64,000 nt of DNA from an uncultured Planctomycetales bacterium (GTDB lineage Bacteria; Omnitrophota; Gorgyraeia; Zapsychrales; JANLHA01), in contig CAZQQI010000004.1 of the NCBI GenBank assembly GCA_964595465.1, forward strand, positions 30,195-94,194, in the 5' to 3' direction. The translations under genes were made by a program, and so were the position numbers. Below are positions 2-24,000 of the stretch, piece after piece (the stretch's first letter is position 1; each line of letters starts with the position of its first letter). Under the pieces are notes generated by a model. That model had not been told where the DNA came from and made no database searches. It worked only from the letters and a program-made list of their open reading frames with translations.

Positions 2-3000
2 ATACTCGGTGCTGTGAGTGCGTTTATACTGAGTCTGATCGGATTCAGCATAGCCATTCGTGCGCCGAATACCTCTATTAAACCGACAATCAAACAAAAT
101 GTGAAGAACCCGGTTCGACGTGTTCTTGGTGAATCCAAGCGTGCGTTTGACCGGGTTTCTTCATTATTCAGCAAAGGAGGAGCAAAATGGTACTTATCAA
201 CACGCACAGAGAATTGGAATTCAAGTACTTCCTGGAAATTCCTCAAAGCCGCTGCACGTTCTGTTCAGGCCGGGATGAAGAAGGGCGCACACGTCTTTAC
301 CTCATCTTCCGTGATCAGGAACGGGTCTATCAGCGCAACGGGATCAAAGGAACCTGGGACGAGATCGCCAGCAGCGCGGAACGCCGGCAGATCCACTCCG
401 TCTACAGCCAAGCGCTCAGCAGTAACCGCGTCCCGCACTTCAAGAGTAACCGGTTCCATTCGATTCTTAATTAGTGCGGCGGTTATTCTCGGCACAGCAG
501 AAACGGCCCAGGCCGCTTCGACCGAAAGCATTGTTTCTGCTGTGCCGGCCTGGATCCTGCCGGCGCTGGGATTCAGTATGATCGTGATGATCAGTGCTGT
601 TTTGATAGGGAAATTGATCAAGACAGCTAAAGAGCACGAAGCACAGCAGAATTATGAAGAAATCACCTCTGATGATCTGATCGAAGAGTGGACAGAACTT
701 GATATTCTTTCAGCGCGGGAATCAGCAGCTCGTGGGTTGGAGGTGGTTGGATTAGGCGCGGCAGCAGAATTGGTCCGCCGGGGTGAAGTGGATGCTGATT
801 ATAACGCTCAGCGCTACGACGCGTATGTCGGCCGGTTAATCGCACAAGCTATGTTTCATGACGAGCATGTACAGGAATGGATGACCGGCAAAAATATTTT
901 AATTAAGTTGACTGGCCGGACACGTTACCGTTTCTACAGCCGGGCGGTGAGAGGCGCGTTTGCTGAACCGGATGATGCCAAGAAAGAATATGGCGAAGAC
1001 CTGAGCGAGATAAAATTAACCGAACGCAGCATTAAAGAAGATATTAGAGAAGCCGCCCGGAAAGCATGGGCGCAGATAACTGGAGAAGGTGCAGGAGGTG
1101 TCGAGCGGTTAACCATACTTAAAGAAAACGCCGCTCAGCGCAGAAAAACTGAAAATATTGCAAAAGGTTTACGCAAACTGAGCAAAGCCGCCGTTTATAT
1201 CATTTTGGCATTGATCGGGCTGGCAGTATTTAACGCGATGACTGCACCGGCTATGGCACAGACAATCTCCGCCGATACGCAGGAAGCATCGCTCAATACG
1301 TCATCAATCTCCAGCGGACAAGCAGCCTCATCCTGGCTGCAACCTGAAAAGCTGCGCCTGCCGTCCAGTGATGATGTCCTGGTCGGACTGAATGTCCGCG
1401 ATTCAGGCTGGGATGATATGCGCATTATGATGGCGCAGGAAAAATCAGGTGAAATTTATGGCGCCCTTAAAAAGTCTGGCCGGCTGCAATTATGGCACGA
1501 GGCCCTGGTGAACCGCCAGGCCGCGTCTTCCGGGGAGGTCGTGATCGGGGTCACCGGACATATTATCGCTCAGGATCCGGTCATTGACGGTCAGCATGTG
1601 GCATTGGGTCAGAAGATCGAGATCGCTAAGGGCATATACGCGCGCGTGTATGCGCCGCAGATGTTCCTGGCCTATGAAAATGAAGAGGATGCGATCGTGG
1701 CGGTTACGGCCGGCGGACGTCATTTCGTGATCCCGGCTGACCTGAGACAAGAGATCGTGGCGAAGCGTTCCGGCAGTGAGACTGATTGGGTTGCCATTCC
1801 ACAGCGGGATGATAAGACCAAACGCGTGATTATCAGAGAGCGTACCATCAGAGAATTGAACGGGCGTCTGCCTAAGCATCGCATTAATGGGCACGACGGT
1901 CTGCGCGGCGGAGCCGTCATGGTCTTGAGCGCCCGGGCCCAACGCCAGGACCGGTTTGCCTTTAATAAACTCTCCGGCCAGCTTCTGCGTGAAGCCGCTA
2001 AGGAGATCGGTACCGGGTATTATGATACCCAACTGCTGAATATGTACCGCACACTCACTTATATGTTCGAACGTGAAGCCGGCTTGACCGAATCTCTGGC
2101 CTACCGTTACTTCGAAGAAGGTGAAGTGATCGGGGCCAGTTATGTTGGAAACGTCGATCGTTTCAAGGCTGACATTCCGTATGACAAGGTCTACAGCCCG
2201 TATTCCGGCCAGGTCACGAAGGTGGAGCGCACAGGGTTCGGTATTCGTATCGAGATCGAGGGGGCGCCCAAGGTAATTACTGGATTAGAGGCGACGATCA
2301 TTAGAGAAGGCGAGATCGTCAAAGCTGGTGAACTGATCGGTCTGGATCGCGACAAAGCGCCGGCAGAGGAACGCTTGGTAAGTATTAAAGAACAGATTGA
2401 AGAAACGCAGGATGAGGCGGCGAAAGTAAATAAGGCCATTGAGCGTGCCGAACGGGATAGAGAGCAGAAGGAAAAGATACTGAAGAGCCTTGAAGATCGT
2501 GAAAAGGCCGGTGAGAGCGCCGTGGCCCAGGCCCGCCGTGAACAGGCGGCACAGATGTCCGGTTGGAGTATCGCGGGCATTAATATTGACCAGTATCAGG
2601 CTGACCCGAAAGTTGTGGCGGAACATCTTAAGATGCTGATTAACGGCACGGTCAGCCCGTATCAGGTGGAAACGGGATTGAAGCTGACCCTGGGTATTTC
2701 CACCAATGGCAATCTGCCGCTGGGCAATATCCCGGGCATGAGCTTTGGCATGAACGGGTTCGGAACCAACATCAGCGGTGCCGGCGCGACGCAGGGCCCG
2801 GCTGATACGCTCAATCTGATGTTCGGTGATGCGCTTTACGAAGGCGGCAATGCTATGGCCGGCAAGGCGCTGGCATGGCTGTATGCCATGAAGTACGCGA
2901 CACAGATCTGGAATTCGATCGCCACTGAGATCCACCATGGTGATGAGCAGCGGGGCATGATCATTATGCCGCATACCAATGAAATGCTGATGCTGCTTCC

Positions 3001-6000
3001 GCTGGATTATACCGAACATCTGGTGGTTCAGCGCGACCTGCAGAAGAAAGACGGTAAGTATGTCTTTACCGAAAAGGATAAAGAATATATCACCCTGAAG
3101 TCGAACTGGACCCGTATTATCGAAGATGTCCTGAGCACTTTGTCACTCAGTCCGCCGGAGAAGACCCTGCTGGAAGAATATATGACCAATCATCCGATCT
3201 ATGTACCGGGCGACCGTGAACGCCTTTTCTGGCTGGAAGGAGTCAATCAGCCGGTTGATTCGGATTATCAATATATCTCAATGCGGGGTATGAGTAAGCA
3301 TCAAATGCGCGAACGTCTGGCCCGGATGCGTAAGGCCCGGAATAATCTACAGACCCGCATCGATGATGCGGCTTTACGTGAAAGTTATCGAAATTTTTAT
3401 AAATCCGCGATCCCGTATCTTGAAAAAATGCTGGCCCAGGCCTCTGCGGACGGATATAAACCGCAGGAATTTTTGCACGGTTACCGTTATAACAAACGGA
3501 CCGGGCAGCTGGAAGAGCGCATGCGGATCCGTATGTTCATTGAAGATGAGAACGGCAAGCCGGTTATTCAGCAGTGGTTGTCTAATGATGATGAGGGTGC
3601 AGCCTACCGTATGCAGCCCGGCACAGCCTTCTTTATTCCGTCTATCGCGCGCGTGACACATAATCTGCCGGAAGTCCAGGCTGGATTGTATGGCAAGGGC
3701 ATGAGTTATGACCCGGCAAAAGGAATTTTCAGCCGTTATGACAATCCTTACAACAATGTCTTTCCGGCCACCCGTCCGGTTTTGAAATTGATGAGCAGCG
3801 GGACCACCTTTGATCTGTTTTCTTCTCTGGCCCAGGCGCGGGCCCTGCCGCAGGCCGTGGGTAAGAATCTTGACGGGTCTTATGCTGAATCTCTATTTAT
3901 CCCGGGTATGGATCTGATCATTGTTTCTTACTGGTTTAATAATGAGATCGTTCCGGAAGGCTCGCAGAATGCCGGTATCAGACCGGCACAGGTTACTGGA
4001 CATTTGATCCCGTTCAAGTTGGCGCAGGGCGGCGGTCAGGGTCAGCCGCGGATTTATGATCAGGCGCCGACATTAGCTTTTACCAGCCGTCTTTCGCAGC
4101 GGGATTGGAGCGTTATCCGCTATCCGGTTGATAAGGATGGCAACCGTATCCCGGTCATGATCCGCACGGTGGATCCGCGCACGGGTGCGGTTTATAAACG
4201 TCCTCTGCCGGAAGGCGTGAAGGTGGTTAAGCGCGCCGGCGACCGCCTGGGTAAAGACCAGTTCGCCTTCTGGGTGGAGCGTCCGCAGAGTATTCCGCGC
4301 GAGATGCATCTGGTGGGTGATGAGGTTCGGTTTATTTCTTCACCGCAGGAATCCGCGATGTATGGAGAGCTGGCGCCGGCACGCACAAAAGAAGACGAAC
4401 GCCGTGTTGTGAAGCTTACCTGGAAGCTTGATGAGAAAATGATCTGGGAGAACATCCTGCATGACAGCGGTGATGACCAACTTAAGCACACTCGCCTGCT
4501 GATCGGCGAAGGGCGCGCGATCGGTTTGGCGGTCCTCGGTGCTAATGCCGAGCCGTTGGATGATAACGAGAGCTACACAGCCGCTGTGAAGCCGGACGGC
4601 ACCATTGTCCGCTATGATGATGCTAACGATCAGCCTGTGACACAGAAGATCGTAATCCCGGTCCTGGAGAAGGCCGATGTGAACGCGCTGGTCACCTTCC
4701 TGCGTAAATATCAGTATCAGCGTATGGATCTGAACACTGTCCGCCGCATGCTGACGGATAAAGATTTTCCGGCTGAATGGAAAGGTGTCTTCCAGATATT
4801 TTCCAATGATGCCCAGAAAGCACTGGATAAGGTTCAAGCAACACAGGCGGCTTTTGAAGCGCAGGTACGCATCAAAGACCGCATTATGCAGATGATCAAA
4901 TCGTCTTATGCCGAAGAAGGCGATCTTATGCGTCAGCGCGCGCAGGCGGTTTTCGGTATCTTTAAAGACATGACCGAGATCGAGGTGGAGATGGTTTCCG
5001 GTATGTTGATGATGAAATACCTCAAGGAGATCGCGATCGAGAATAATATGAGCCTTGATCAGCTGATCGAACAGCTTGAGGAGCGCGGCGACCTGCGAGA
5101 TCAGATCATGAAGCTTCTGCATGACCGGTTTACGCCGACGCATCTTTTCGGGCGCGGGGCCGCGCAGGACAACCAGAGCAAGCTTCGTCAGACAGAAGAA
5201 GGCATTCAGCACTTCCGCAACTTTACTCCGAAGACCAGTACCGCATTCAGCGCATACGAGCTCGGCGGAACGACTGTTGCCGGAAGAACAGTGACTTTTG
5301 ATGAGGCCATCGCGTGGAATAAAGGGCAGATCAACACCTTTAAAGAAGACTATAAAACGGATCTGATAAATTTGATGAACAGTGATGATGCAGATGACAA
5401 CCTGCTGCGTTCACAGGAAGAATTAGCAGAATCTCATGACTGGCTGACCACAGAAAGCATCCAAATGCGTCAAGCCATGTCTGACATCGCCCATCAGCAG
5501 AATATTTACGGAGGCTATGTCAAGGCCGCTGATTTTATCGGACAGTGGTATGACAATGCGGCCTATTGGCAGGGCGCTTATGATATCAGTGATTTTCATG
5601 TCCGTCAGGAACAGTGGACCTGGAAGAATGGCGAGCTCATTAAACATCGTCCCTGGTATCATGAACATCAATTAGAAGATATTGACCGCTGGATCGCTGG
5701 ATATAAGCGCAACATTTCTCTCCTGCAGATCGCCGATACAACACGGGTCGAGAGTTTTGAAGGGCTCTGGATCCGTCCGATCCAGAGCAAGACCGTTTAT
5801 ACGGTAAGTGACGCGCAGAAAGAGGCGGACCGCTTGCGCGAGGAAGTTCGCTCCCTGCCGTTTGCATTTAAGGATATACAGAATATCACGGATGAAGCCC
5901 GCGCGGTCTATCAGAAATATACTGATCAGGTTCTGCCGCTGCAGAAGGCCTACGCGGATCTGCTGGCGAAAGACGCGGCCGCGGACGCGTTATTCCAGGG

Positions 6001-9000
6001 CAACAATCCGAATAAAGAGACAGTGGAAGACATCCGCGCGCGTAAGTTGAAACTCTTCCAGGCAGAAAAGGCTTGGCGTGAGGCGCGTCAGACTGTTCTG
6101 GCAGAGCTGGATCAGGTTGGGCAGGGTTATTATCTGGATGAACGCACACGCCGCATTCTGGACTTTGAGCGTGAATTGGCGCTGACTGCTGCCAAAAATT
6201 TCTTTGACCGCCGCGGTCTTGGCGCTAACCCGCACGGTGCTATGTTAGAGAACATGAAGAAGTTCGCCAGTTATAACTGGCCGCTGCGTGACATTGCTAA
6301 TCGCATTTCTGATCTGCGCCGGGCGTCCGACAATGCTGAGAAAGATATTGCGCGTGCGCATCAGGCAGTTGTTCACGCTCAGCAGCAGTTCGATGATTTG
6401 GTGACTAATTTTGGCCGTTCATTCATCGACCATTTGGACGAGCATTACGAAGGCGTGGTCCTCTCCCAGAAAGACCGTAATTATATTGCTTATCAGCTGG
6501 CCCGGATGCAGCGCGGACCTCCGCGGATCAAATATATGAATGGTCAATTGTACTTAGACGGCCGTCGTGTTGACGCGGCCGGCACGATCAGTCAGGGTCG
6601 ATTTACCGAGATCTCTTCTTCTGATTTTCGCAACGGCGAGATGTCCGCGCATATGACCGCCTGGATGGATCCGGAACACGGCCGCAATGTCTATATTATG
6701 AATGCTCAGCCGAATGCCGAGGGCATGGGCGGACATCAGCTGATGCTGCTTGAGGTTAATCTGACGCCGGAAGAAGCCAGGAATTTTACACATCATTTCG
6801 CGATCGGAGGCGGGCAGTGGTCCCGCACCGAACAGCAGGGTGCGTTTGACGAAGAGGGCGAGACCGTGACTGAACGGTACGCCTTGATCCTGGATACATT
6901 AGCGTGGCGCAATGATAAATTTTCTTTGAATGTGGTCGGGTTCGGTAAGATCTCAGCATCAAAGAACGGTACACATGTCGGTGGTCTTCAGGGTACGCTA
7001 GAATACAAGATCAACGAAAAGGCGCGTTTGATCGTGGAAGGCGGATTCGCGGCATCTAGCCGAAAAGAGACCTATAGTGTTTTCGATCCTGCCACACAGG
7101 CCTATAAGCCGTGGACCCTGCGCGGGAGCGATAACTATAATTATCAGAAGATCACACTGGATCATGTCCTGACCGAAAAAGGCGGTCTGCGCGGTCAGAT
7201 CTCGCTCATGCGTGTGCAGGAAGGCAGCTTTGCCCGTAAGATCAAGGGAAACACCAGTATCTTCCCGTCTATGGGGCTTACCTATAGTCCGAAAGACGCA
7301 GCCAAGCGTCAGGCCGAGGCTAAGTTGGCTGAGCTTAAAGAAGACGGTGTGACCGATCCGTTTGAATTGCAGGCAGCGTATCAGAAGACCTATAATGAGA
7401 CCCTGGCGCAGTTTAAACTCCCGGTTGAGGTCGCTTTTGAACAGGCCCTTGGGTTCAACATGACTAACATTGAGGCGCGTTACAAGAATGTCTGGATGCG
7501 GGCGCGTCACCTGGACGGCACCTGGACTTATGGCGCGGGCGCGCGGATCATCGACCGTGAGCAGGTCAAGATGGATGTCAGTGTGTCGGTTGACGCTCTC
7601 GGCACACCTGTGGTGAATCTGGCGACATCCGCCCAGCCTTTTGACGGTGTCGAATTCAGCGCTTCGTTGGGCAATAAAGATCCGCTGGTCAGCGCCACGA
7701 TCGATATCTTTAAACTGGCTAAAGTATTGGCAGTGAATGAAGAGACCGAAGCGGCTGCGGCCGTGACCCTGAGAGATCTCTCCCGGACTCAGATCATGGT
7801 GGGTCTGGATCTGGCCGGTGTGGTCGATGCTGACGCGCGACAGATCGTCAATATTATTATGCAGATCCGCAGCGACAAAGACTTCATGAAGACCAATCCG
7901 GGTTTTGATCAGATCCTGGCCCATGAGAAATTCAAATCTCATCAAGACCTGAAGAACATCCTAGATAAACGCATGGTTGTCAGCAAGCTTGCTTGGACTA
8001 AGACCGTTACGGAAGAATTCGTTGCTTATGAAAAAGCGGATATTGATCCTTTCCTGGCCCTGGCCCTTGCACCTCAGCCGTTCGATCAGCCCAAGCCGTA
8101 TGATGTCAATGTTTACCTGAATGAGAACTTGTGGCAGACCAGATATGCTGTTCTTGAGACGGACGCCGGGGATCTCAATACGAGCGTTGTCGGGCTCAGG
8201 AAGCGCATCGCTCATGAATTAAAGATCGCGAACAATAAAGATTATTTCGGCTATGCCCGCTTGCTCGGCCGCTTGAGCCAGGGGCTGACGATGGAAGAAT
8301 ACAGCGTGGCTGTGACGGTCGAGAAGGCGTATGAAGAATACAACGAGAACGGCATGATCCGGTTCGCTCCGGGCAGCGGGTATTACTTCCGTATGCCGTA
8401 CCGTGGTGAGATTATCGAGATCCCGATGGGTGACGGGAAAGGCCTGGTCATCGTTCCTGAGTTAGCTGAAAAATATAATCTGCGTGAAGAATTGCGTAGC
8501 CCGTATCCGATCCCGGTCGAAGCGAAGCTGAATATGCTTAGATTGATCGAACAGGCTTACGAGGGGGATGGGTACTATGTGGTGCCGGGCGAAGGGCTTT
8601 ATCAGATTACCGACAATCAGCTTGATCTGCACCCGGATGCCACAGACATTCCGGCTGAGGCGATCATCGTCCGCAGTGAACAGGGCATTGCAGCAACGGC
8701 AAACCATTTTGCTCTGATCGTACCCAACAGCCAGGGAGAATGGGTCAAGATTTTTGCAACGGAGGCCGAGATGGTCAACTTGCTGAATGACAGGACCTAT
8801 GGATTAGATTATTACCTGTTGACAGAAAAGGACCAAGACGGTGAACCTATTCGCATGCTGGCTGTCCCGGCTGAGGAAGGCATGTCCGGTGCCAAAGAAA
8901 CCATTGACGGCCGCTGGGTGATCGGTGTCGGATATATGAACAGAGAATTGAACGACCGCCTGGATAGCGAGACTGAAGAATTCAACGCCGGGACACTGGA

Positions 9001-12000
9001 GAAGGATGGCGAACCGGTGGTCATGCGCCTGAACCGTCCGAATGTCACGGCAGACACCTTAGCAACATCGCTGACCCGTGAAGAAGCCGAGCAAATGATT
9101 ATAGATAACATGGCGACTGAAGAGTCAGAGCTGAACGCGCCGCACTTTGTCCTGCGTCATCTGAAGGACAACCTTATGGATGCCTTCCCTTATTATCAGG
9201 ATATCGATGGTGACCAGGAATATGATCCGCAAACCGATGCATTCAGCAAGGGTGACCCGCGTTTCTATGAATCCCAGCCGAATGAATCTTCGCGCGGTGA
9301 CCAGTGGCAGCCGCTGAAGACCTTCGGTATCTATGATCCGCAGACCGATACATTTTACACCTTTGATTTTGCCGGCGAAGACGGGCGTATCGGATACGCT
9401 GCGATGTCTGATATCTTAGCGCCGTATTCGTCTGTTGTCGTGAATGAAGCCGGTCAATCCGTTTATAAAACCACGGAAGGGCTGGACGCGCTTATAAGCG
9501 AAAACATCCTGAGATGGGCTAAAGAGACAGAGGGCGGGCGCACGCGTTATATCTTAGAAAGCCCCTATTCACCGGTTGGGTTATCGCGTGACTTGCGCGA
9601 TCAGTTCGAAAACATTCTTGAGCAGGGTCATTGGCTGGTCCTTAAAGAAGACACCGTTATTCCGTCCAGCGTGGATCCGCAGAAATTGATTGCGGTGACC
9701 TCTAGATTCGAAGCGCTGCTGGAAGGTTCCCTTGAGGATAAAATTGAAATCGTCCGAATGGATGCGGACGGATATGTGACAGCCCATGTCTACCTTGATT
9801 ACAATCCTCAGAAATCACGGATCGGAGTTGTCGATAGCGCCGTTGAGCGTATCTACAACTTGGCGGATTATATCGAATCCCCGGCCGATGTGCAACCTGT
9901 CGCTGATGCGACGACGTTGGATGAGCTGACCTATAGCGACATGAGCGATGTTCCGGAATTGACCCTTCAGCGTTTCCACAAGATTATGGATGCTGTACAG
10001 CGGTTGGGTGAGGATCTGAAATACGTTAAGATCCGTGATCTGGATGTGACGCGCTATTTTGATGGACCGTATTATACGATTGAAGTCTTTGAAGAAGGCG
10101 CCAGCGATCCGATCGTCAGTATTCGCCCGCTGCAGGAAGAGATCGTTTGGTTTGACGCCGAGGGGAACGAACGCTACACCACTGATCTGTACGGCGAAGA
10201 GGGCGTCCGGGTCAAAATTGGGGATCGCTTCGAAGAGAATGTCACCGGCGTCTTCGAATTTCATGAAGACGAAGACACCGGGTTATACGTTAGTTTGCGT
10301 GAGACAGAAGAAAATCCATCGTACACGACCATGAAACGTACCCATACTAATGGTGCCATACAGCGAGAAGAGGTTGCCACTGTAAAGAGAAATGACGTGA
10401 TCAATATCCTCAACACCGGTCAATCGTTACAGAACATCGCTGAGGGAGCGGACTTCACCTATGCCGATGATTATGTTTACGACAATGAGCATAAATTGGC
10501 CGAACGCCGTATTGGCGTTCATGATCAACACGCATGGACCATCTATCCGCAGGTTCAGGATGGGCCGGTTGAAGGTATTACGGAAAAACTGCTGGCCTTA
10601 AGCGATGTCGGTCAGAGCTGGGGTCAATTTAATATTACTTCTGATATGGAATGGGAGATCGCCAAAACCGTACGGGTTTTCGGCAACAATTACAAAGTTG
10701 AGACCTATGACTACCGTATTCCTAATGATCCTTTAGAGCGAATCTTTTTAACGATTAGGATGGAGAATGGTCAGCTGATCGAAATGATTGCCGGATTGGC
10801 ATTTGATCAGCGTACCGGGGATCAGATCCGTTCATCTGTCCTGGAGATGAACTACGACGAAAAAGCCCAATTTGATTATCTTGAAGAAGATGAACGGGAG
10901 CAGTTGGATATTATTGACAACGCTGGACAGCTGTTTGATGCAGAAAAGATCGAGACCCTTATGGGCGCGATGGCCAGACGGTTCCCGGAAGCCGTCAAGA
11001 TTGATCGTGCAGGACGCCTGACCCGGTTCTTTGATATTATCGGGCAGGAAGATGAGATCCTGCCGGAAGACTATCCGCAGATCTTCTGGGGATTCATGCG
11101 CCGCATGGGAATTACCCCGGACACAGAATTTACGGTCTTGCGTGAGCGGGCCCGCCTCTGGACCGGTGATGGATATTCTGATCAGTATTTCGCCCGGCCG
11201 AAATTGCATTACCTGATCCCCAATGACAGCCGCGGGCGGGATGCTGTGGTGGTCTATCCCAACGGCGATATGACCCTGAACTTGTGGTGGCTGGAGGGTG
11301 AAGAAAATGTCCATGTTATAAACGGCGGTCCGCGTTATTACGATATGCCGACCGGGGTTCTTCCGGGTATGATCACGATCGATGCAGACAATGAGCTGAA
11401 GCAGGTCGGCATATACCGTGCTCCGGCTCAGGGTGAAGCTGAATTCGATATTACCTTATATGAGCGCGAGAATGGCCGTCCGCTGGAAGGCGCTGACCCG
11501 ATTGTGGATGTCCATGCTGGCGGCGGACAGATGTTCCAGACAGCGTTTTATAATGAAGACGGCTCCAAGGATGTGTTCATCGGTCATGAATATGAGATTA
11601 TGGACGCGGAATTCAAACGCAGCGCCATCTATACGGCCGGTGGTCAGCTTCTGGCTGAGAAGTATTCCCATGTCACGGTTCAGATCGTCAAAGAGCTGTT
11701 GGGTGTTGGAACCAATGGGGAAGAAACGATTGTCTTTGATCCGCGCCAACCATACCGCTATCCGATCCAGGCTTACATGAGGAATGCCGAAGGAGAGAAT
11801 CTTGCGGACGGCACCATCGTTAAGACCTTTGTTCACCAGGACAGCATGATGGATTTTAGCGCTGATCCTATAAAAGCCGATGTGGGTGCTCAGAAGAGTG
11901 AATTTGTGGTTTATGAATCTGAGGGCGTGGCGCCGCAAACAATCAATGCTCAAAAGTATACCTATATTGATGACGAGCTTCAGGAAAAGACCCGCTGGCA

Positions 12001-15000
12001 GCTGGGTAAGGATTATTTAGAAGCATTGCCGTGGAAGACGGCGATCTTCCTGCTGATGCTGTATCTGGCTATCAATTTCGGCTTCGGCAAGATCATTGAA
12101 ATTTTCAAGACAGCAGGACGAAAAACCGGTTTCGGATTGTCTCGTCTGATAGCTGTCTTTGGACGGAAACATAAAAAGGAACGTGCTGACTCAGCAGATG
12201 AGGGTCAGGAAAGAATTGAAGATATGGTTAAAGAGATGGAAGCCTTCATCGATGCTCTTCCGGCATACGGATTTCAAGCGGGTTCAGCTGAAAAGACAAA
12301 AGAGAATCTCAAAGACGAACTGCGCAGCCTATTGAAGGCCGGGGTCAGCAAAGAAGATATCGTGAAAAATCAGTTTAGATTGTTTGTTAAAGTGTGGTTT
12401 GTGCCGGTCATGGCCCGCAAAGCCTGGATGGGAGAATATCAGCAGAGCGATATATCGGATCGCGGGTTATGGGTAAGGGTCAAACGCTTCTTGCGCATTG
12501 ACCGAAAGGTCAAAAAATATGCCCTGGGTCATAATTATGAAGAAGTCGAAGAACGGGCCAATGAGATCCTTTCTAAGGTGGGCTATCAGCTCGAGAATGG
12601 CAAGGCAAACATGGTCTATGACAAGACGCAGTGGAAAGAATATATCCGTCACATGTATATTTACGATATGGTCAACCGCTCCAGCGGAAGACTCTCGAAT
12701 GTAACCATGACCGACGCGTACTTCTTTTATCGCGCCCTGCAGAGTATGGGCCATGATCCGCTGTTCGGTAGAAAGCTGGAAGAGCGTCACTTGGATCTGT
12801 GGGATAAGGTTGTCCTGGCACACAATAAAGCGATCAAAGCTCACACCAAGCACGGGGCTGCACATCATGATGATATCAGCGGCTATTTCCGCACGCCGGG
12901 ATATATCCGTTGGTATGAACAGCAGGATGAGACCGGATTGACCGGACGTGATCGTGTGGAAATCGAGCTCATGAAAGCCGATCTGTTGGAGCAGACCCTT
13001 AAAGCCAACGAAGTTCTGCCTAAGTTGTATTCTGATGTTAAGACCACGATGTATGGATTTGCCGGCTGGATCCGCATCCTGCGGAATTTTAACCGTCCGA
13101 TCAGCGCCATCATCAGTGTCGTGATCCTCTCATCATATGGGATGATGTTTACCTATCAGCCGAGTCTGCTGGGAGCCTTAGGAACAAGCAACATCGCCTG
13201 GCCGGCGTTGATCGCCTGGCTGCCGTGGGCCGCATTGGCTTTTGCGGTTTTACTGGGTGTTAACATTGTAATCCGATTGTTGGATGAGCACTTTAAGGCC
13301 CGCAACACTCTGGAGGATTTCGGTTATGGGGAAAGCGTGGCAGAGTCGGCTTATGATGACAAGGCGCCGAAGGGCACGCGCGGCCGCAAAATACGGGCTA
13401 CGATATCGACAATAGTGGTCCTGGCATCCAAATTGATATTTAACCTCTATATTATGAAATGGATTGGCGGTGCTCTGCTCATCATCGGGACCAGCACGTG
13501 GTCAGTTCCGTTTGCAACGTTTATTATTGTGGGAATTCCGTTCGCGGTGCTCTTTGCATTCAGCTCGTGGGAGTGGTCGAACCGCACAACGGCAGAAAGG
13601 GTCCGCACAGCCTTGGCAAAAACGATCGGGCTGAGCGGAACTCTGCTTATTGCAGCGGCTTATTTCTTCGGATTCCACAGCTGGGTCGGGTTGTTATTAG
13701 CGGTTCCGTTTGTGGCCATGATGAGCGTCATCCTGTTATTAGACGCGTATGCATACTGGTACCTTTGGGAAGGGAAGCTGGGCAACTGGATCGCCAAGTG
13801 GACAGGGGCGTACCGTGTCAGCGCCTGGAACATATCTGCTCCGCATCGCCTGCTACGCAATACAATGACCGCTGGTGTGGTGCTGTTATTCATGTTCATG
13901 GATCCGACAGGGACGCTTAGTGCGCTGGCCTTCGGTCATGGCATCTTATGGACGGCTGGATTATCGGCCATACTGATTGCTGGTATTTCCGTGCTGAACG
14001 TTATATTCTTCCGGTTCGGCATCGCCAAGATCGGCGGGGATTCGGCCGCTGATGTCTTCCCGCGGGCGATGGAACGGTTTGCTGTGCAGAACCTGCCTGC
14101 GACACCAGAATTGACAGCACTGGAGAAAGATCCGAAAAAACAGGTTGAGATTAATGGAATCGTCTTCCCGAGCCGCGAACATGCCGTGGCAACTGCCAAG
14201 GCCTGGAACAGCTTTATTGATCAGTATGTGACCGATGACCTTTCTACTGATGGAGATGATAAAGACAAGCAAGGCGAAGCCGATAAGCTGAAATTCAAAA
14301 TTGAAGGGATCGATGACGCAGATTTCTTTGCCGGTGAGGTTGTAGCAGCGCCGAATCTGCGCAAGGTCACTCCGGAAGTTAAACGTATCCGTTACCGCAT
14401 CCAGTTTTTCCTGGGCACCCTGCTCATGGATATGGAGCGCACACCGGTATGGGATCAGATGCAGATGCTTTCAACTGCCCTGCCGCATTTTGATGAGGTC
14501 TTGATCTATCCGTTCTCCATTAAGACCCGCGCGGATTATGACGGGATTAATTCCCCCTACCGTACCGGAGAAACTTTGCTGACCTACTTTATCAAGCGGC
14601 ATGGAGCCGAATGGCATAATTTTAAGACACGTATGAGAGAAAAATATGGCTCTGATCATCCGGATGTTAAAAGGTTAGATGAGTTTGATTATCAAAATGG
14701 AGAAATCCTCGGAACATATGACAGCCGTGATCAAGACTATCATCTGGAAAGTGAAGAGCTGGAACGCGAGGTCAGTCTGTGGGTTTCTTACCGTTATCAG
14801 CCGCTGTCTCGTAGCGTGCGCGGGATTATGCATCATCAGAAGATGTATGCGTTCTACGCTCGGGTAAATAATCCGAAGCTGAGTCAGGAAGAAGCTATGC
14901 AGAAGGCTCTGGAGAAATATGAATTCCTTCTTGGATTCCAGAAATATGGCGACTTTTTACCCAATTATGAAAAATATCTTGAAGCAATGGAAGATTGGAG

Positions 15001-18000
15001 GCGGGACACAACCAAAGATAAGCCCGAGAAAGATAAAAACATTATCTTGGTTGAGGACGCCAATTATCTCCTGCGTAAATATCCGGGTCTGAAAGGAGCC
15101 TACTTATCTGGTAAACCTTTTGGGGCCGTCTTTACTTACCGCAAAGAATTAAACGGGAAAGAGAAGAAGATCCTGTATGAATTTAAAGATGAACAAGGCG
15201 GATACATTGTCGAAATAGACCATATTGATCTGCCTGCCCATTACTTTGCCGGACAAGGGAAACCCGTCAACCAGAATCACCTTTACCGTTTCGTGCGCGG
15301 AGAAGTCGTTCAGATGATGGATATGAACCAGGATTTCTATCTGGAAGAAACCTTCAAGGCGCCGAATCTGATCGCTGAATTCCGCAAAAATGAGCGTCTG
15401 GTTATTATGGGGTATCCGGAAGATATTGTGACAGACGTCAGTTCACCGGCCGGTAGTGTCCACGCCTTTGGGGACCACACCTTCGCCACCCTGGTTCAGC
15501 GGGCATTGAACTGGAACGGGGTCCGCTTCCATTATGGACATCCGGACTTCGTCCGGGCTCGTAGTTTCCGTCAGCTGGGTCTGTTAAGTGCGCCGTGGGT
15601 CAACGAGGACATTTTCGGGGCTTATAAGGGAACGCTGTATGGTGAGGAAGTTTCCAACAGTGAGATCATGCAGGCAGCCAAAGGCCGTGAAGGTGTCTAT
15701 GAAGGCCTGCTGGGTATTTCGGATAAATTCGGCGCCGGCGCAGCAGAACAGGCCGTGACCCGTATGCTTTATCTGTTCAACCGTTCCGGCAAGATCGGTT
15801 TCGGCCGTGTCTTTGTTCACTTTATTGCCTCGATCGGCTACTTCCTGCGCAAGCCGTTGGTTGTTCTGCAGAACAATCTTTATATCCTGACCATCGTTTT
15901 GGGCGGTCTGAGCCTCTTTGCCGCATTTCCGGGTGAAGTCGTCTTCGGTCTTGTTGGTCTCATGCTGTCGCAGGCCATCACCATGACCGGATATATTCAG
16001 CTGATCAAAGAACACGGGTTCTTCAAAGGCACATGGAGATTTATGAAGGTCTTCCCGGTCGCAGCGTTATCTTATCAGGCTTTGATTTACGGTGCGTTTG
16101 CTCCGGGTGTCATCAAGGCGACCATTAATAATGCCGACTATGTCAAGACCGGACGTCGTCCGGGCCGTGAACACCGCACGCCGTTCCGCAAAGATGTCGG
16201 TTCAAGCGACCATATGGAACTCTATAAATATGTGGCCCTGGATGATAAGCCGGTATCAAAATACGGCAAGGTCGTTAACGGTTTTGTTAATGCCGCTTTA
16301 GGGATGATCCTCTGGCAGACCTGGGGCAGCATCTGGTCTCTGTTCCCGCTGATGATGATCTTCTCGTCCATGGTTGGCCCGTATATGCTGAATCCGGGTT
16401 CAACTCCGCTGACGGTTAGTTCCAAGACCTGGGTTAAGAATCATATCTTTGATATGAAACATGCTGCCTATAAAGCGGGTAAGAAATGGATCATCATTAC
16501 AGGTAGCTTTGCCGCCCTTTGGTTCGTTTTAGGCGGTCTGCCGTTCTTGCCGATCTTTGGGGTTATGACGGCGTACTGGGCGCTGGGATTCTTCCAGGAT
16601 CGTTCTGGCGAGGGGAATCGTGTTAAAAAGGTGCGTGATACGGTTGACGAATATGTCAGCATTACAGTGGTCATGAGTATTCTGACGGTGCTAGGAATTG
16701 CCGCTTTAGTTTACGCTGTGCCGCGTGATCTCATTAAAGGACGCATAGGTTGGATCAAGAAGATTTATAAAAACGGTGTCGGACAGAACGGACGGTTAAA
16801 GGAAACACAGGATGAGGGTAGCTATGGTCAAAAACAGGCAGAAACCAATCATTCGGCTGACGCACCAGGCGAGACAAAAGATAAGGGCCAGCAAAAGACG
16901 TCCGTTAAAGACGGTCAGGAACAGGATGCCGGCAGCCAAAAACAAAAGAATACAGATGTGTCTGATTCCGCTTCAAAAACTGCAAAAGAATTAAGCATTG
17001 GAACGTTGCAATCAATAAAGAGGGAATACAATCACAACGAAGATCAGATTGAAGTAGATAAAAAGGCCAAAAAATTGTGGAAATATCTGCTTGGTCATTC
17101 GCATGAGAAGATAAATGACGCGATTTCTCTTATAGCTCAGGCCGCAGAACTCGAGCAGGCGTTAGAGAAAGAAAAAGATAACGCTAAGAAGAACGCCTTG
17201 AAGAAAAAGATTTCGAATGTAGAAGGGCAACTGCTGCCCATTATCCCTGCCCTCGATCTGGCGACATTTGGGGTTCATCTGCAGGGGGAAGAAGAGCAGG
17301 CCGAAGCCAGTCAGGGCTTAAATGAACTTTTCAAGCGTCAACAGGATTTGATAAAGGAAAACAGAAAAGCTAAGAACCAGCAGTCAGCTGAGCGCAAAGC
17401 AGAAATTGAAGCGCAAATCACTCAAGCTCAGAATGAGTTGGCCAGAAAAGTCCCCGCTCTTACGACCCCGGTTATTACCTATTATTTAGAGAACGCAGCC
17501 GATATCCAAGAGGTGATAAAGGCCCTTGTCCAGCAGCATCAGATTTATTCCAACCAAAAATTCGAAAAGGCACTAAAGATCATCCAGAAAAGAAAACGGG
17601 ATGAATATCAAACAGTGACGTCAAGAGAAAAGCAAAAGATGTTCTCTGATATTTGGGAACAGGATATTAACGAAAATATTAAGAGTTTGTTGCATGCGCT
17701 GGTCGGAGAAAAGAACCAGGAGCGACAGGATGCAGGATCGTCTGCGGCTAAAGAATTGAAGAAGCGGCTGGATAAATCAGTAAAAATTCGTGCCGAGTTG
17801 TATATAGAGAAGCATGGTTACGACATCGAACTGCTTAAACAGCAGGCAATCAAGGCGGGAGTCGATGTCCCAAGCCGCGGGGAATGGATCTTCGCGAGAA
17901 TGCGTTCAGATTTACAGCAGGCTCTATTGGTTAAATATGATTTTGATCGGCAGGCTGTTTACCGCTCCATGATCAGTGAAGCGGAAATGCTGGCAGTACT

Positions 18001-21000
18001 GAGCCGCTTCCTTAACGCTCATGACAGTGAAGAAAGCCTCTATGAGGCAGATGATCTGGTTTTGGCCGGTAATGATGACTTGAAAACTTTTGAAGAAGCA
18101 CTGCGGTTATTTGAAGCAGGTGTGGGCCAGCGGATCGTGATCCTGGGCGGATACGGCCGTTTGACCCTGCCGCTGATCCAAAAAGCCGTGCAGGCCGGCT
18201 TCTCCATCAAGGTGGCTGATGATCGGATCATCAGTGACGGCCAACAGCTGGCCGAATTGATGGCGGAAGTCAATGATGAGAATATGTCGCAGATCATTAA
18301 CCGCAGTGAAGCGGATATGATCCGCCAGATTATGGTCCAGATGATAGGCGGGGATAATGAGATGCTCCGGAAGTTTAACGCAGCGGTCGTGCTTGAAGAA
18401 GATTCGGCCAATACGCGTCAGAATTTTGTGAATTACCGCCAAAAACTGATCGATGAGGACCGGCTGCAGGACGGGCAGTTATTCCGCGCCCTTTTCATTC
18501 AGACGCCGCACCAGCAGTTCCGCACACACGCCACTTTTAATAGTGTTTTCCAAGCTGAAATTGCCGCTGACAAAATAAAAGGCATCAGCCGCACCATTGA
18601 CCTGCGCATTCAGCCTACGGCAGAGTTCAGAAGTCTACTTATCGCAGAGCTAATTAAAATTATCGCCTATACCAAGAAAGGCGATATTCTGCCGGTCTAC
18701 AAGGACAAAGACGGTCTCCCCGCCATCCCGGCAAATATATGGAAAACAGGGGCCCAGCTCTTCACTGATCTTACTGCATCTGATCAAAATGACCTCGCTG
18801 TGGGCATGTTTCAGATCATCGAAGCGGCCGGCTTTAACAGAATCGACATCGTCTCTGAGAATGATCCTGATGCGGTAAAAGAATTTATATCAATAGTGAT
18901 AGCCCCGACGTTTATTAGAGAGATTCAGGAAGATATTCGCGCAGAGCGGCCGGCAATTACCGCACAGGAAGACGGCTACGACCTGCGCGTCAGCGATGTT
19001 CAGATCCCTGAGCAATACCAGCCGGCTGTCGAGGCTGCTCTGCGCAAGGCCCTGCAGGAAGGCGCGATCCTGATCAAGGCGGTTAATGCCGAAGGTCAGG
19101 AAATCATCATCCCGGCCGATCAGATCACCATCCGCTTCTCCAGTGTGCATTTTATCATCGATATCAAACAAGCCCTGACCAGCCTTCGCGTTGTAATGAA
19201 GGAAGAGAACGAGACCCCCGCGAAGCAGACGGAAGATACCCAAAACCCGCCCGCCGCCGCAGCCGAACCGCAAAAAGCTGAACCTGCCGCAGAAAAAATC
19301 GCTGACCAGAAAGAACCGGCGGCAGCAGAAAACGAAAATAAAGCAGCTGCTGAAAAGTCTGCAATACAGGAAAACGAAACGGCTCCGGCTGAAACTGCAA
19401 AACCATCTGAAGAACCCAAAGCCGCAGAAGTCAAACCTGTTGTTGAAACTCAACCAAGCCGGACAAGCCGCCTCCGCCGTTTTATTCGCCGTGTCGTGGG
19501 CATCTCTTCAATGCTGGCTATCGTTTCCTTGAGCGCCTATTCCGCGTTGTTCCTCCTTGCCAAATACAACGATCTGCCGGGAGTCAGCAAAGACATCACG
19601 GCAGCCTTTACAGCTTCAGCTGAAGAGTTTGTTTCTGCTGTCCCGGCCTGGATCCTGCCGGCGCTGGGATTCAGTATGATCGTGATGATCAGTGCTGTTT
19701 TGATAGGGAAATTGATCAAGACAGCTAAAGAGCACGAAGCACAGCAGAATTATGAAGAAATCACCTCTGATGATCTGATCGAAGAGTGGACAGAACTTGA
19801 TATTCTTTCAGCGCGGGAATCAGCAGCTCGTGGGTTGGAGGTGGTTGGATTAGGCGCGGCAGCAGAATTGGTCCGCCGGGGTGAAGTGGATGCTGATTAT
19901 AACGCTCAGCGCTACGACGCGTATGTCGGCCGGTTAATCGCACAAGCTATGTTTCATGACGAGCATGTACAGGAATGGATGACCGGCAAAAATATTTTAA
20001 TTAAGTTGACTGGCCGGACACGTTACCGTTTCTACAGCCGGGCGGTGAGAGGCGCGTTTGCTGAACCGGATGATGCCAAGAAAGAATATGGCGAAGACCT
20101 GAGCGAGATAAAATTAACCGAACGCAGCATTAAAGAAGATATTAGAGAAGCCGCCCGGAAAGCATGGGCGCAGATAACTGGAGAAGGTGCAGGAGGTGTC
20201 GAGCGGTTAACCATACTTAAAGAAAACGCCGCTCAGCGCAGAAAAACTGAAAATATTGCAAAAGGTTTACGCAAACTGAGTAAAGCTGCTGTCTATATCA
20301 TTGTGTTTTTAATCGGCTTGTCAGCACTCAACGCGATGACGGCACCGGTCATGGCGCAGACCATCTCTGCCGATCAGCAGGAAGCATCACTTCATGGGTT
20401 GCCGCAAGAAACCGGATTTGACATAGATGATATCCGTATGCCCTCCAGCGAAGATGTCTTGGTCGGCCTGGGAGCCCGGAATATTTCCCGGGAGGACATA
20501 CAGATTATGATGGCGCAGGAAAAATCTGCAGCGATTTACAAGGCATTGGAAAAGGCCGGCCAAGAGCATCTCTGGCACGAAGCCCTGGTGAATCGTCAGG
20601 AAGCGTCTTCAGGCCAGACCGTCATTGGTGTAACCGCGCATATTATTGCGCAGGATCCGGTCATAGACGGCAAACCTGTAATCCCTGCCCAGCGGATGGA
20701 GATTGCCGAAAACGTTTACGTGCGCGCACATGCACCGCAAATGTTTCTGGCTTATGAGAACGCTGACAATGAGATAGCAGCGATTACCGCTGGCGGGCGC
20801 CGTTTTGTGATCTCGCCTGAGTTGAGGGATGAGATCGCAGCTCAGGAAAATTTCAGTGATGATGATTGGGTCGTTATTCCTCAGCTCGATGATGACAGGA
20901 GCCGCATTATCATAATGAAACGCACCATCAGTGAATTGAGCGGGCGCCTGCCGCAGCAGCGTATCAACGGGTATGAAGGTCTGCGCGGCGGTGCGGTTAT

Positions 21001-24000
21001 GGTCATCAGCGCACAGACCAAGGGGCAGGATAAAAAGACTTTTCATGACCTTGCCGGCCAGCTTCTGCGGGAGGCCGCAGAAGTGATAGGTTCTGATTAT
21101 TATAAAACTCAGCTGCTTAACATTTACCGTGTTCCGACTTACCTTTTTGAGCGCGAGGCCGGACCGGCCGAATCTGTGGTGTATCGGTATTACGAAGAAG
21201 GCGAGGTCATGAGCGCCAGCTATGCAGGCACCATCAAAGGCATTGAGACGGATGTTGCGTATGAGCGGGTTTACAGCCCGTATTCCGGTAAAGTCGATAA
21301 GGTCGAGCGCACAGATTCCGGCATCCGCGTCATGATTAAGGGTGCCCCAAGAGCCATTATCGGTTTAGAGGCCACGATCATTCGTGAAGGCGACATTGTG
21401 ACGGCTGGCGAAATGGTCGGCCTGAATAACGTTCAGGTTCGCGCAGGTGGCCGTCTGCCGGCATCAGAAGAAGAGGTCGAAAGCGCACGTGAAGAGGTTG
21501 CCCAGAGAATAAAGGTAGATAGTCAGCGCGCCGCAAGTACACAGGTAAACCTTTCGCAGCAAGAAAAAGATGCATCTTCACCGAACCATCGCGCACCTCA
21601 GGATGAAAAGCAAAGACAGATTATAGAAAACAGGGCCGCCAATTTACGAACAGATGTGAGCGGAACAGAATACAGCGGCCAGCAGCAGGAGATAATGAGC
21701 GTTATCGAGCGGGCTCGTTTCCAAGTTCTGCATAACCGCTTATTTATTGATACCGAAGATGAGCCGGATCTGATCGTGGCCTCGATTGCGAAAGGCACTC
21801 TTTATAAAGAAGTCTATTCATTCAGTTCCCTGGATGACGTTCAGGATAAAAATTCTTTCATGTATTTTATCCGCAACAACCCCACTGCTACAGTGGAGAT
21901 TTATCAGGTGCCTGCAGACGTAGAACGTGGTGGTTTTGATATGTCCAGTATCCGGCAGGATCGATATCGTTTATCTACTATAGAGGAGATCGATAGAGCT
22001 ATCCAAAATGGAGAACATATCGTTGTTGTCGTGGAAGGAACGGTTGAAGATGAGCATTTTGAAGGAATATTATTCGCGGGCACAGAGGCAGCTCAAGATC
22101 GCAAAGAGCTGAATGACCGCGTCAGGGACCACCTTCTGCAGACGATACGGCTGCAGAAGGTGTTAGGTTCAGCCGAAGGCGGAGTTCTCACAATTGAACA
22201 GCAGCGGGCGGCAGTCCGGGCAAAATATCCTGCGAGTTTCGGAAATGCTGTCTTTAAAAACACATCTTTATTTGTGGCCGCCCAGGTTGGCACAGATAAC
22301 CGTGGATTTATTAGAAGTGTCCGGTCGCTGCTGACGAGCGGAAATTTTCATCGCCTTAATATTGACGGCGCGCAGTATCCTGCCATGACCATAAATGGTC
22401 AGACGTTTGTGCTGCGTTATTGGCCGTTTGATACCCATCATATAGTCAAACGCTACATTCCCATACCTGTTGAACTGAATGGTGAAGGCCGTGTTATTAA
22501 AGAAGAACGAGCGGCTGTGATCAGAGAATTAAAACGATCGTTAACCAGCGCGGACCAGGTGCGGGGGACGATCATTCTCGGAGAATATTTTTATCAGGCT
22601 GAAGGCGTTAAGAACGGCATCGGCAGGATCATGCTGGCCCGGGAACAGCAGGCGATGCAGGATCAAAAGGCCTATATGGATAAGAAGATCATATCTGAAC
22701 TCTTGTTCCTGCCGGCAAATTTTTATATCCAGAGTCCGGTTCCAGTCAGCACGCCAGGAAGCATCCTCTTCGATCTGATGTTTAAACCGGACAATGATCT
22801 GTATAGACCGTTGACCAATGAAGAAAAAACGCAGTTTTTGGCGCAGTATAGAACGCTTTATCGTGAGAATGTTTCCGCTCGTCTGGATGCTGATTCTACT
22901 TTGGATCTATGGCAGAAGAAATGGAACATGTTAAATAAGCAGGAGCAGGACCGGGCGCTTAGAGAAGCCGATATCCTGGTCAATGATCTACTCAGCGCCG
23001 ATGAGAGAGATCTGCTCGATGCCTTTAGTCAGCGCCGGCACAATGAAATGGAAGTCCTGACAGCCTTAAATTGGCTGTCGCAGGGAGCGCGTTTTGCCGG
23101 GGAGATCATGGAGCGCTATGACACCCGGCAGGTTGTTGTGCCGCGGGCGTTAGGTCCGGAGTCCGCTGTGTTTGACGCCCCCCGGCATCAGGCAGCTGTC
23201 GATATTTTGACACAAAAATATATTTCTTTCACCGGGGAATTAAATCTGATTTCGACATTGACCCTGGGAGAACATACCAGCATCGGAGTCAATACCGGTC
23301 AGAATATGAACTTTTTGGAGAGTTTGCTGCAGCTGGGTATTACTGTTGACCTTAAGTCGGTTATCAATCAGGGGGCCATAGCAGCAACAGGGGATCCTAC
23401 CAGCACACGCTTCGTTACCGCACCGACACGAACGCGGTTCAATCTTTATATCGGCGGATTTCCGCTATCTTTGGTGCTTGACCGGGTGTTGTTGGGTCAG
23501 GTTCTGGAGGCGCATCAGGATGAAGATATTTACGCGATCCAGATCAAGGACGGGTTTTTCTTCAGCGACCTTGAAACATATACCCGTGAGCAATTTGATG
23601 TTCTTACCAAAGCCGTCGCTGACGCAAGGGTTGTTGTAGGCAAGACAGAGGTCAATGTCGGAGGCCGCGTCAAGACAGTGGCGTTTTATCTTGTCGCCCG
23701 TCTAAAAGCTGATGGGAAACCAGAGCTGCAGGTCTTTATGTTGACACCGGCGGCTTATGAAGCTGAAGCACACAGGATCGATCGTGAAATCGCACAGTAT
23801 CAAGATTTTATCAGGTCTCAGCGGGAAGGCGGATATAGCGCCCGTTATGGCGCGAGAGGGGGCACCTATGCTCAGAATATCGCAACCGGCCTGTTGAAAT
23901 CTTATGATCAGCAGCGTCTGGCTGACTATCCGAATGCCTACACCTGGGACATGATGGTGGTGGCTGAACGGATGCTGAACGCGCATGATCGAGAGCGCGC

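Follow-up and report, generated by a model that had tools for sequence, protein, structure and literature searches.

To our knowledge, well-supported cases of a bacterial gene nested within another on the same strand are few, and the textbook examples are comS within srfAB and the phage pair Rz/Rz1. In phage lambda, the Rz1 gene lies wholly within Rz, is read from the same strand in the +1 frame, and has its own ribosome-binding site. Rz and Rz1 are two small, interacting lysis proteins (spanins); both products are functional, and both frames are constrained. ComS is 46 amino acids (aa) long and is generally regarded as a novel frame laid over the older frame of a nonribosomal peptide synthetase, and srfAB keeps a functional domain in that segment. 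In the surfactin synthetase operon of Bacillus subtilis, comS occupies a distinct frame of srfAB on the same strand, with a shared transcript and coupled transcription (PMC12915044). Here we describe a small open reading frame (ORF), ORF1, near the start of a 64,000-nucleotide (nt) stretch of DNA from an uncultured Planctomycetales bacterium of GTDB lineage Omnitrophota (GenBank assembly GCA_964595465.1, contig CAZQQI010000004.1, positions 30,195 to 94,194), which we refer to as the window. ORF1 lies inside a giant ORF that fills the window, and comparison with related loci leaves us highly confident that it is a real, selected nested gene.

The giant genes of "Candidatus Omnitrophota" are described as ORFs tens of thousands of codons long that have many transmembrane regions and a mosaic content of sugar metabolism, phosphotransferase, and HEAT domains (West-Roberts et al. 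2023, bioRxiv 10.1101/2023.11.21.568195; 10.64898/2026.06.07.730766). The former also describes divergent SecA DEAD/preprotein-binding domains in most, though not all, of these giants (10.1101/2023.11.21.568195). Term searches of both reports (10.1101/2023.11.21.568195 and 10.64898/2026.06.07.730766) retrieved nothing on ORFs that nest or overlap, on alternative frames, or on ribosome-binding sites inside a gene. We found that the host ORF of the window resembles the Omnitrophota giants in codon count, number of transmembrane segments, and mosaic domain content. Pfam gave no SecA match across the 64 kb of the window, which holds part of the giant gene.

The closest analogue of the ORF1 arrangement is comS inside srfAB. 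Like comS, ORF1 is small, lies on the same strand in another frame, and falls wholly within a very large multimodular gene. In contrast to comS, ORF1 has free-standing paralogues and is itself the frame that carries selection, whereas the host frame is an unconstrained linker. The host also differs from srfAB in being a membrane-spanning ORF of more than 21,000 codons, and the nesting is kept across deeply diverged lineages at 30 to 50% identity. As in Rz/Rz1, the inner ORF lies entirely within its host, shares its strand, stands in the +1 relation to it, and has its own Shine-Dalgarno sequence (SD), which is known here from sequence alone. Unlike in Rz/Rz1, the host segment is without amino acid constraint and belongs to a giant cellular gene. 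What sets ORF1 apart from both comS and Rz1 is that the nested gene is apparently ancestral, that the host gives only a stop-free linker, and that the host is among the largest ORFs known.

Anatomy and coding signal of the nested ORF

The initial annotation reported a 95-aa ORF in frame 1 whose ATG at 187 stands 6 nt after an AAGGAGG, and we recovered each of these elements (SD at 174-180, ORF at 187-474, TAG stop). ORF1 is wholly inside 2..64000, on the same strand and in another frame, the host being read in the +1 frame relative to ORF1. As the initial annotation stated, the giant frame stays open across ORF1. In fact, we found that frame 2 contains no stop over the full window (nt 2 to 64000, at least 21,333 codons) and continues beyond both window ends. 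The giant-frame reading over ORF1 is also as quoted there, WYLSTRTENWNSS...RTSRVTGSIRF, beginning WYLSTRTENW.

The same annotation judged that this reading had the composition of an off-frame sequence, and our data agree. The giant-frame linker over ORF1 consists of 64% S/T/A/R/P/G, has a strongly positive net charge, and is one of the two giant-frame stretches that score worst for codon usage. A combined S, T, A, R, P, and G fraction of at least 0.64 occurs only at two stretches, those of ORF1 and of a second nested ORF, ORF2, which is described below; the giant protein overall has 0.36 ± 0.06.

We scanned the frames by codon log-likelihood in 240-nt windows. Frame 1 outscored the giant frame at only two places in the 64 kb, and these were the two nested ORFs. 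The same two stretches have the lowest giant-frame codon scores (-4.36 versus -4.22 for the next worst). In its own frame ORF1 scores -4.11, the top value among off-frame open stretches. The statement in the initial annotation that ORF1 has genome-typical codon usage was therefore too strong: the small frame does beat the giant frame there, and its score is about 2 standard deviations (SD units) below that of typical giant-frame coding.

The length of ORF1 alone is unremarkable, as each off-frame of the window contains 8 open stretches of at least 95 aa. The initiation signal is rarer. AAGGAGG occurs three times in 64 kb, and two of the three copies have an ATG in frame 1 exactly 6 nt later, so that AAGGAGG-N6-ATG was observed 2 times versus an expected 0.16 in the window. 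These two sites open the frame-1 ORFs of 95 and 77 aa. When the giant-frame amino acids were held fixed, frame 1 was open in 1.3% of synonymous resamplings at ORF1 and in 0.18% at ORF2; when the ORF1 protein was held fixed, the giant frame was open in 0.5%. We found no sigma-70-like promoters or terminators above shuffle expectation near either nested ORF. The third AAGGAGG (49517-49534, + strand) has an in-frame GTG 8 nt on, in the context …DKFSPKEVILVGW…. It is probably no start site, and we rejected it as an internal start, its surroundings being an ordinary K-E-V coding context.

Protein family and selection on the two reading frames

We built a family profile from two sequences and searched 1.84 billion cluster representatives. 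This search of the 95-aa protein returned a family of 101 representatives at E of ≤1e-3, of which 46 were at ≤1e-10, and nearly all are 85 to 110 aa long. One 95-aa relative (P0001) is 50% identical to ORF1 over 100% coverage (E, 1e-27), and a family hidden Markov model (HMM) made without ORF1 scores ORF1 at 1.5e-32. The N terminus is MV in 64 of 95 small family members, typically as MV(L/V/C/T)(I/V/L)NT, and 19 end in LN. Conservation of the MV start in nested copies could reflect protein function, initiation context, or overlap constraint. AlphaFold2, run on ORF1 with a 96-sequence alignment, gave a confident model (predicted local distance difference test [pLDDT], 87.3; predicted template modeling score [pTM], 0.75) of five beta-strands, a long helix, and a short strand. 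Because hydropathy analysis found no hydrophobic segment in it, the protein would be soluble and cytoplasmic. A CxxC in ORF1 was set aside as a zinc site, as its second Cys is not conserved in the family. Neither Pfam nor NCBIfam has a family for ORF1 or its relatives, a sequence-profile search of the PDB with the ORF1 family gave no match, and exact look-ups of both small ORF proteins found none on record.

The closest relatives of the nested gene were found in metagenome-assembled genomes (MAGs) labeled Omnitrophota. The same nesting is present in six other lineages, four of them labeled Omnitrophota; the remaining two (L004 and L016) are unlabeled metagenome contigs. At each nested locus (L003, L004, L007, L008, L011, L013, and L016), the host is read in the +1 frame relative to the small gene, and no stop interrupts the giant frame across it. 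All nested homologues have an SD 6 nt ahead of the ATG, which is AAGGAGG in L003/L007/L008 and L004, AAGGAGA in L011, and GGAGG in L013 and L016. The seven nested lineages come from JGI, ENA, Logan, and GenBank MAG sources and share 30 to 50% protein identity; even at about 30%, the small frame still has its SD, ATG, and stop.

To compare selection on the frames, we used L007 and L008, the closest nested pair, which is unsaturated at 88% nucleotide identity, and calculated the ratio of nonsynonymous to synonymous substitution rates (dN/dS, or omega) by the Nei-Gojobori method (NG86). The 35 differences in the nested ORF fall 6, 2, and 27 at small-frame codon positions 1, 2, and 3. For the nested ORF, the small frame gave a dN/dS of 0.08, compared with 1.76 for the giant frame and 3.8 for the third (null) frame. 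In the giant frame of the flanks, dN/dS was 0.46 upstream (696 codons) and 0.11 downstream (1,436 codons), and the flank differences cluster at the giant-frame third position downstream and, less sharply, upstream. Thus, selection follows the giant frame in the flanks and shifts to the phase of the small frame within the nested ORF.

We saw the same pattern at greater distances. When the window is compared with L003, identity is 51% and positives are 78% in the small frame (score, 284), whereas the giant frame over the same bases has 39% and 49% (score, 112). These giant-frame values cannot be told apart from those of the third frame, which contains stops (41%, 46%, and 115). The NG86 omega for this pair was 0.49 in the small frame versus 1.08 and 1.25 in the other two. 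Among six nested copies, the small-frame BLOSUM score (104 to 478) exceeded the giant-frame score (7 to 305) and also the null-frame score in 15 of 15 pairs, with the giant frame close to the null frame. These substitution patterns show that the small frame is under strong purifying selection and that the giant frame is unconstrained over ORF1 apart from lacking stops.

The surroundings of the nested gene are also shared. Most nested relatives have the same order of a transmembrane (TM) helix, a motif, a short linker, SD, ATG, a low-complexity stretch, and a hydrophobic segment, and this last segment immediately follows the nested stop or starts at most a few residues from it. In the giant frame of these relatives the SD reads K/Q-G-G, and ATG-G gives Trp. 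The motif (I/V)(R/Q/G).APN that follows the TM helix is recognizable in L007 (~9880-9900), L008, L011, and L013; at its position, L004 reads IRGPS and L016 IRASR. Beyond this region, the giant proteins of these lineages do not align with one another. Because this upstream motif is recognizable in several lineages, the data suggest that the nested arrangement was inherited and not repeatedly re-created. A BLASTP comparison of the L003 and window giant proteins found similarity only at window aa 1 to 157, the nested-gene island. The codon scan of the relative loci flagged only the nested ORF, and in L008 it flagged nothing.

Two further observations concern these loci. In L007 and L008, nucleotide homology ends right at the nested stop (10290 in both) and returns ~0.75 kb (L007) and ~2.4 kb (L008) past it; therefore, the following TM segment has been replaced or is indel-rich in this pair. 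In L015 (ENA ERZ1286166 contig_299, 10001-10999), the 332-aa gene call P0071 joins giant-frame sequence (…NKGGLSW…) to the C-terminal two-thirds of the small protein. We set P0071 aside as a natural in-frame fusion, since frame breaks throughout L015 split its giant gene into numerous short ORFs of one strand. Judging from the contig name and this fragmentation, the frame breaks are likely indel errors of an error-prone long-read assembly, and a genuine in-frame fusion is the less likely reading.

Free-standing homologues, rival explanations, and polarity

Homologues of ORF1 also occur as free-standing genes. In L005, L006, L009, L010, L012, and L014, a gene of ~90 to 95 aa directly follows the gene for MraZ (PF02381) and precedes that for RsmH (PF01795). 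The sources are Omnitrophota MAGs, two MAGs labeled Planctomycetales, and two unlabeled contigs, one of which is L005. The ORFs that follow would fit ftsL, ftsI, and murE; in L005 and L006, the penicillin-binding protein and Mur ligase genes were confirmed by Pfam. ORF1 matches these six loci by tblastn at E values of 1e-14 to 1e-21 and 31 to 44% identity, and the protein P0012 matches the ORF1-family profile (E, 1.5e-17). The mraZ-rsmH small gene, which has no Pfam or NCBIfam family name, has the same length as ORF1 and shares the motifs FK[YH]..E, LFL.F, [IV]Y.RNG, and W.E. It differs from the nested copies in being free-standing, in lacking the MV.INT N terminus, and in forming its own cluster: in a neighbor-joining (NJ) tree, which is rough and without support values, the free-standing copies group away from the nested ones. 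The window copy is not between mraZ and rsmH and is instead inside the giant ORF. We assign it to a paralogous subfamily; it is not the orthologue of the gene in the division and cell wall (dcw) cluster.

Taken together, these data make it highly probable that 187-474 is a genuine gene nested +1 out of phase in an Omnitrophota-type giant multitransmembrane ORF. From the conserved SD and ATG, we assume that the small protein is made by independent internal initiation, which we regard as very likely. An alternative that accepts selection on the small-frame sequence is programmed frameshifting, in which ribosomes would slip -1 near the internal SD into the small frame and +1 back near its stop, with the SD as the stimulator. 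Internal SDs are known to stimulate both -1 (dnaX) and +1 (prfB) frameshifting, and in the window GCA AAA TGG holds an A AAA, where slippage of one tRNA-Lys by -1 could bring the ribosome into the ATG frame. However, no slippery heptamer of the form X XXY YYZ is present, and L007 (GGG TCA TCA TGG), L008, L004 (GGT TTC ACA TGG), L013, L016, and ORF2 (GCA TCA TGG) all lack the A AAA. The conserved element is an initiation cassette, SD-6 nt-ATG, together with a small-frame stop that has no shift-back motif, and the free-standing homologues, equal to it in length, are whole proteins in themselves. Frameshifting also needs no stop-free giant frame for ~95 codons, yet that frame is open in seven lineages and over ORF2. 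We consider frameshifting quite improbable. Slightly harder still to defend is a relic, a once-independent gene that was swallowed and is now untranslated, with its conservation coming from RNA-level or giant-frame constraint. Initiation inside a translated ORF may indeed be inefficient, but the 27 of 35 L007/L008 differences at the small-frame third position and the omega of 0.08 indicate ongoing protein-level selection. The giant-frame omega of 1.76 means that giant-frame constraint is no explanation, the pattern is unexpected from RNA structure, and the SD, ATG, and stop have been kept down to ~30% protein identity.

The two remaining explanations deny the nested gene altogether, and we give each of them a negligible probability. 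The initial annotation had raised a compensated frameshift, in the form of two compensating indels; a misassembly, or a giant frame that is really interrupted here, would be equivalent. The giant-frame reading does resemble off-frame sequence, and the related long-read contig L015 has frame breaks and the chimeric gene call P0071. This idea nevertheless found no support: phase, SD spacing, start, and stop are the same in seven independently assembled lineages, the free-standing homologues are of the same length and start and end at the same positions, and in L007/L008 the substitution phase changes at the ORF borders. Alternatively, ORF1 could be a chance off-frame ORF with fortuitous SD-like codons, with only the giant frame functional. 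Long off-frame stretches are common enough in the window, and the AAGGAGG at 49517 does consist of ordinary K-E-V codons. Against this stand 101 homologues, purifying selection in ORF1's own frame, a confident fold, and the conserved SD, ATG, and stop, and the motif, an ORF, and the codon signal coincide at two sites only. Chance is refuted for ORF1; for ORF2 alone, it has a low probability.

Under independent initiation, 30S subunits would start at the internal SD on the giant mRNA, and synthesis of the small protein would be tied to giant-gene transcription. Host ribosomes would read through the region and produce an S/T/A/R-rich, strongly positive loop between two membrane helices, which is probably cytoplasmic because of the positive-inside rule. 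The initial annotation had listed an overprinted gene and an internally translated product among its explanations. At the level of sequence evolution, both are strongly supported (by the family, by the omega of 0.08 versus 1.76, and by the SD, ATG, and stop in seven lineages). For overprinting, the nested coding frame holds up and the usual polarity most likely does not, as the small gene appears to be the older one. Free-standing members of the family exist, and the host frame is without amino acid constraint; most likely, therefore, the small gene came first, and the giant frame would be the newcomer over these bases. The giant ORF would have come to bridge the small gene, either by fusion of flanking ORFs across it or by its uptake into a loop-coding segment, and selection would then have cleared stops from the +1 frame.

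Several points weigh against this interpretation. Internal initiation within an actively translated ORF is an assumption that we make from the conserved SD-ATG, and both the expression of ORF1 and its own initiation are read from sequence evidence alone. The codon score of ORF1 is borderline for coding, about 2 SD units below the giant-frame norm (-3.93 ± 0.08). The older-small-gene polarity depends on the free-standing paralogues, the unconstrained giant frame, and the rough NJ tree without support values. The case for ORF2 comes from the window, and cross-species searches found no homologue of it. Finally, the Peptidase_M23 match in the window, which bears on function (see below), is under the Pfam threshold (17 versus 28.7 bits).

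Second nested ORF, host gene, and possible function

The initial annotation implied a second copy of the ORF1 arrangement, and we found one at 46561-46794 with the same anatomy, although homology to the ORF1 family was not detected. ORF2 shares with ORF1 the initiation cassette, the phase relative to the host, the seat between TM segments, the giant-frame composition, and the codon signal. A single-sequence AlphaFold2 run gave a confident fold with the five-strand-plus-helix order seen in ORF1. Word-based database search, tblastn versus all loci, and the family HMM found no homologues of ORF2, and BLASTP of ORF1 versus ORF2 found no similarity. ORF2 is very probably a second nested gene that most likely works as ORF1 does, and it is possibly a very divergent member of the ORF1 family.

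The features of the window and of the related loci are collected in Table 1. By hydropathy, the giant protein has ~63 TM-like segments in the window. Pfam matches in the giant frame include a Glucan_synthase domain (~14.4-15.9 kb; E, 1e-60), PEP-utilizers domains (~41.5-42.8 kb), GH130 (~53.2 kb), and TPR and HEAT repeats. Peptidase_M23 reached 17 bits against the Pfam threshold of 28.7 at ~2185-2345 of the window, and it was above threshold in L007 (12585-12850) and L011 (5320-6070, plus an SLT lytic transglycosylase). In L007, L011, and the window, where the match is weak, the M23 (with or without SLT) module is in the host frame ~570 to 820 aa downstream of the nested gene. Searches with giant-frame aa 160 to 900 or 1 to 900 found no relatives in genome contigs, metagenome contigs, or a 5.8-billion-protein database. 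The host protein is too divergent for such searches and is essentially an orphan.

Table 1. Positions of features in the window and in loci with ORF1 homologues
Feature	Position	Strand	Description
Host giant ORF	2..64000	+	Uninterrupted frame 2; transmembrane-like segments; mosaic of enzyme and repeat domains
Giant-frame TM-like helix ILGAVSAFILSLIGFSIAI	2..58	+	From hydropathy; upstream edge of conserved island
Motif IRAPN, giant frame	59-73	+	Directly after TM-like helix; recognizable in several relatives
Shine-Dalgarno AAGGAGG, ORF1	174..180	+	6 nt ahead of ATG; K-G-G in giant frame
Nested gene 1 (ORF1), MVLINTHRELEFKYFLEIPQSRCTFCSGRD...HSILN	187..474	+	Frame-1 ORF, 95 aa, TAG at 472-474
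Giant-frame reading over ORF1	188..475	+	Stop-free linker, SD region to next TM helix
Giant-frame hydrophobic segments AAVILGTAETAQAAS... and ILPALGFSMIVMISAVLIG	476..610	+	Begin right after nested stop
Shine-Dalgarno AAGGAGG, ORF2	46548..46554	+	6 nt ahead of ATG
Nested gene 2 (ORF2), MDSLWEKLEVQRTV...STGGR	46561..46794	+	Frame-1 ORF, 77 aa, TAA stop
Nested copy, L001/L002/L003/L007			Omnitrophota MAG RA.bin146 and matching metagenome contigs; open host frame, 20,285 nt (L007)
Nested copy, L008			Omnitrophota MAG; open host frame, 20,285 nt
Nested copy, L004			ENA contig; open host frame, 756 nt, whole contig
Nested copy, L011			Omnitrophota MAG; open host frame, 10,325 nt, whole contig
Nested copy, L013			Omnitrophota MAG; open host frame, 8,528 nt, whole contig
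Nested copy, L016			Logan contig; open host frame, 6,587 nt, whole contig
Free-standing small gene, L005	3204-3491		
Free-standing small gene, L009	9980-10243		
Free-standing small gene, L010	635-922		
Free-standing small gene, L012	9983-10261		
Free-standing small gene, L014	8804-9067		

Two side observations concern the giant frame itself. The hydrophobic segments at 476-535 and 1178-1279 have signal-peptidase-like A-x-A ends (…GTAETAQA, then AS…, and …TAPAMA, then QT…), which raises the possibility that the giant product is cut into pieces in a polyprotein-like manner. There are also long open stretches on the - strand at 33017-34456 (480 aa), 7001-7960 (320 aa), and 4343-5410 (356 aa). Each of them sits codon for codon opposite the giant frame, whose codon usage most likely produces them as a side effect.

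Because a paralogue is linked to the dcw cluster and an M23 (with or without SLT) module follows in the host, the small protein might be a cytoplasmic partner or regulator of the peptidoglycan or division machinery, a role that we consider speculative and rather unlikely. A broader reading is tentative, too, and only a little easier to credit. According to this model, giants would grow by bridging existing genes without deleting them, and the swallowed genes would stay independently translated over long evolutionary spans, while the host reads them as dispensable loops free of stops. The nested gene, as a paralogue of an unrecognized dcw component beside mraZ, would tie expression of a giant peptidoglycan-attacking protein to the machinery with which the cell builds its wall and divides, and ORF2 would be a second, divergent member, which would make this a recurrent design.

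The comparative evidence for ORF1 as a nested gene is unusually clean: selection changes phase precisely at the ORF borders, seven lineages have kept the nesting even at ~30% identity, and there are free-standing paralogues. One consequence is that real genes go unannotated inside the largest bacterial genes known. Moreover, part of a giant "protein" is selected only for the absence of stops, which matters when giants are mined for domains and structures. The finding also suggests a route by which giant ORFs extend over neighboring genes without losing them. Finally, an uncharacterized family beside mraZ, with a nested paralogue upstream of peptidoglycan hydrolase modules, is a candidate handle on the control of wall degradation in putative predators.

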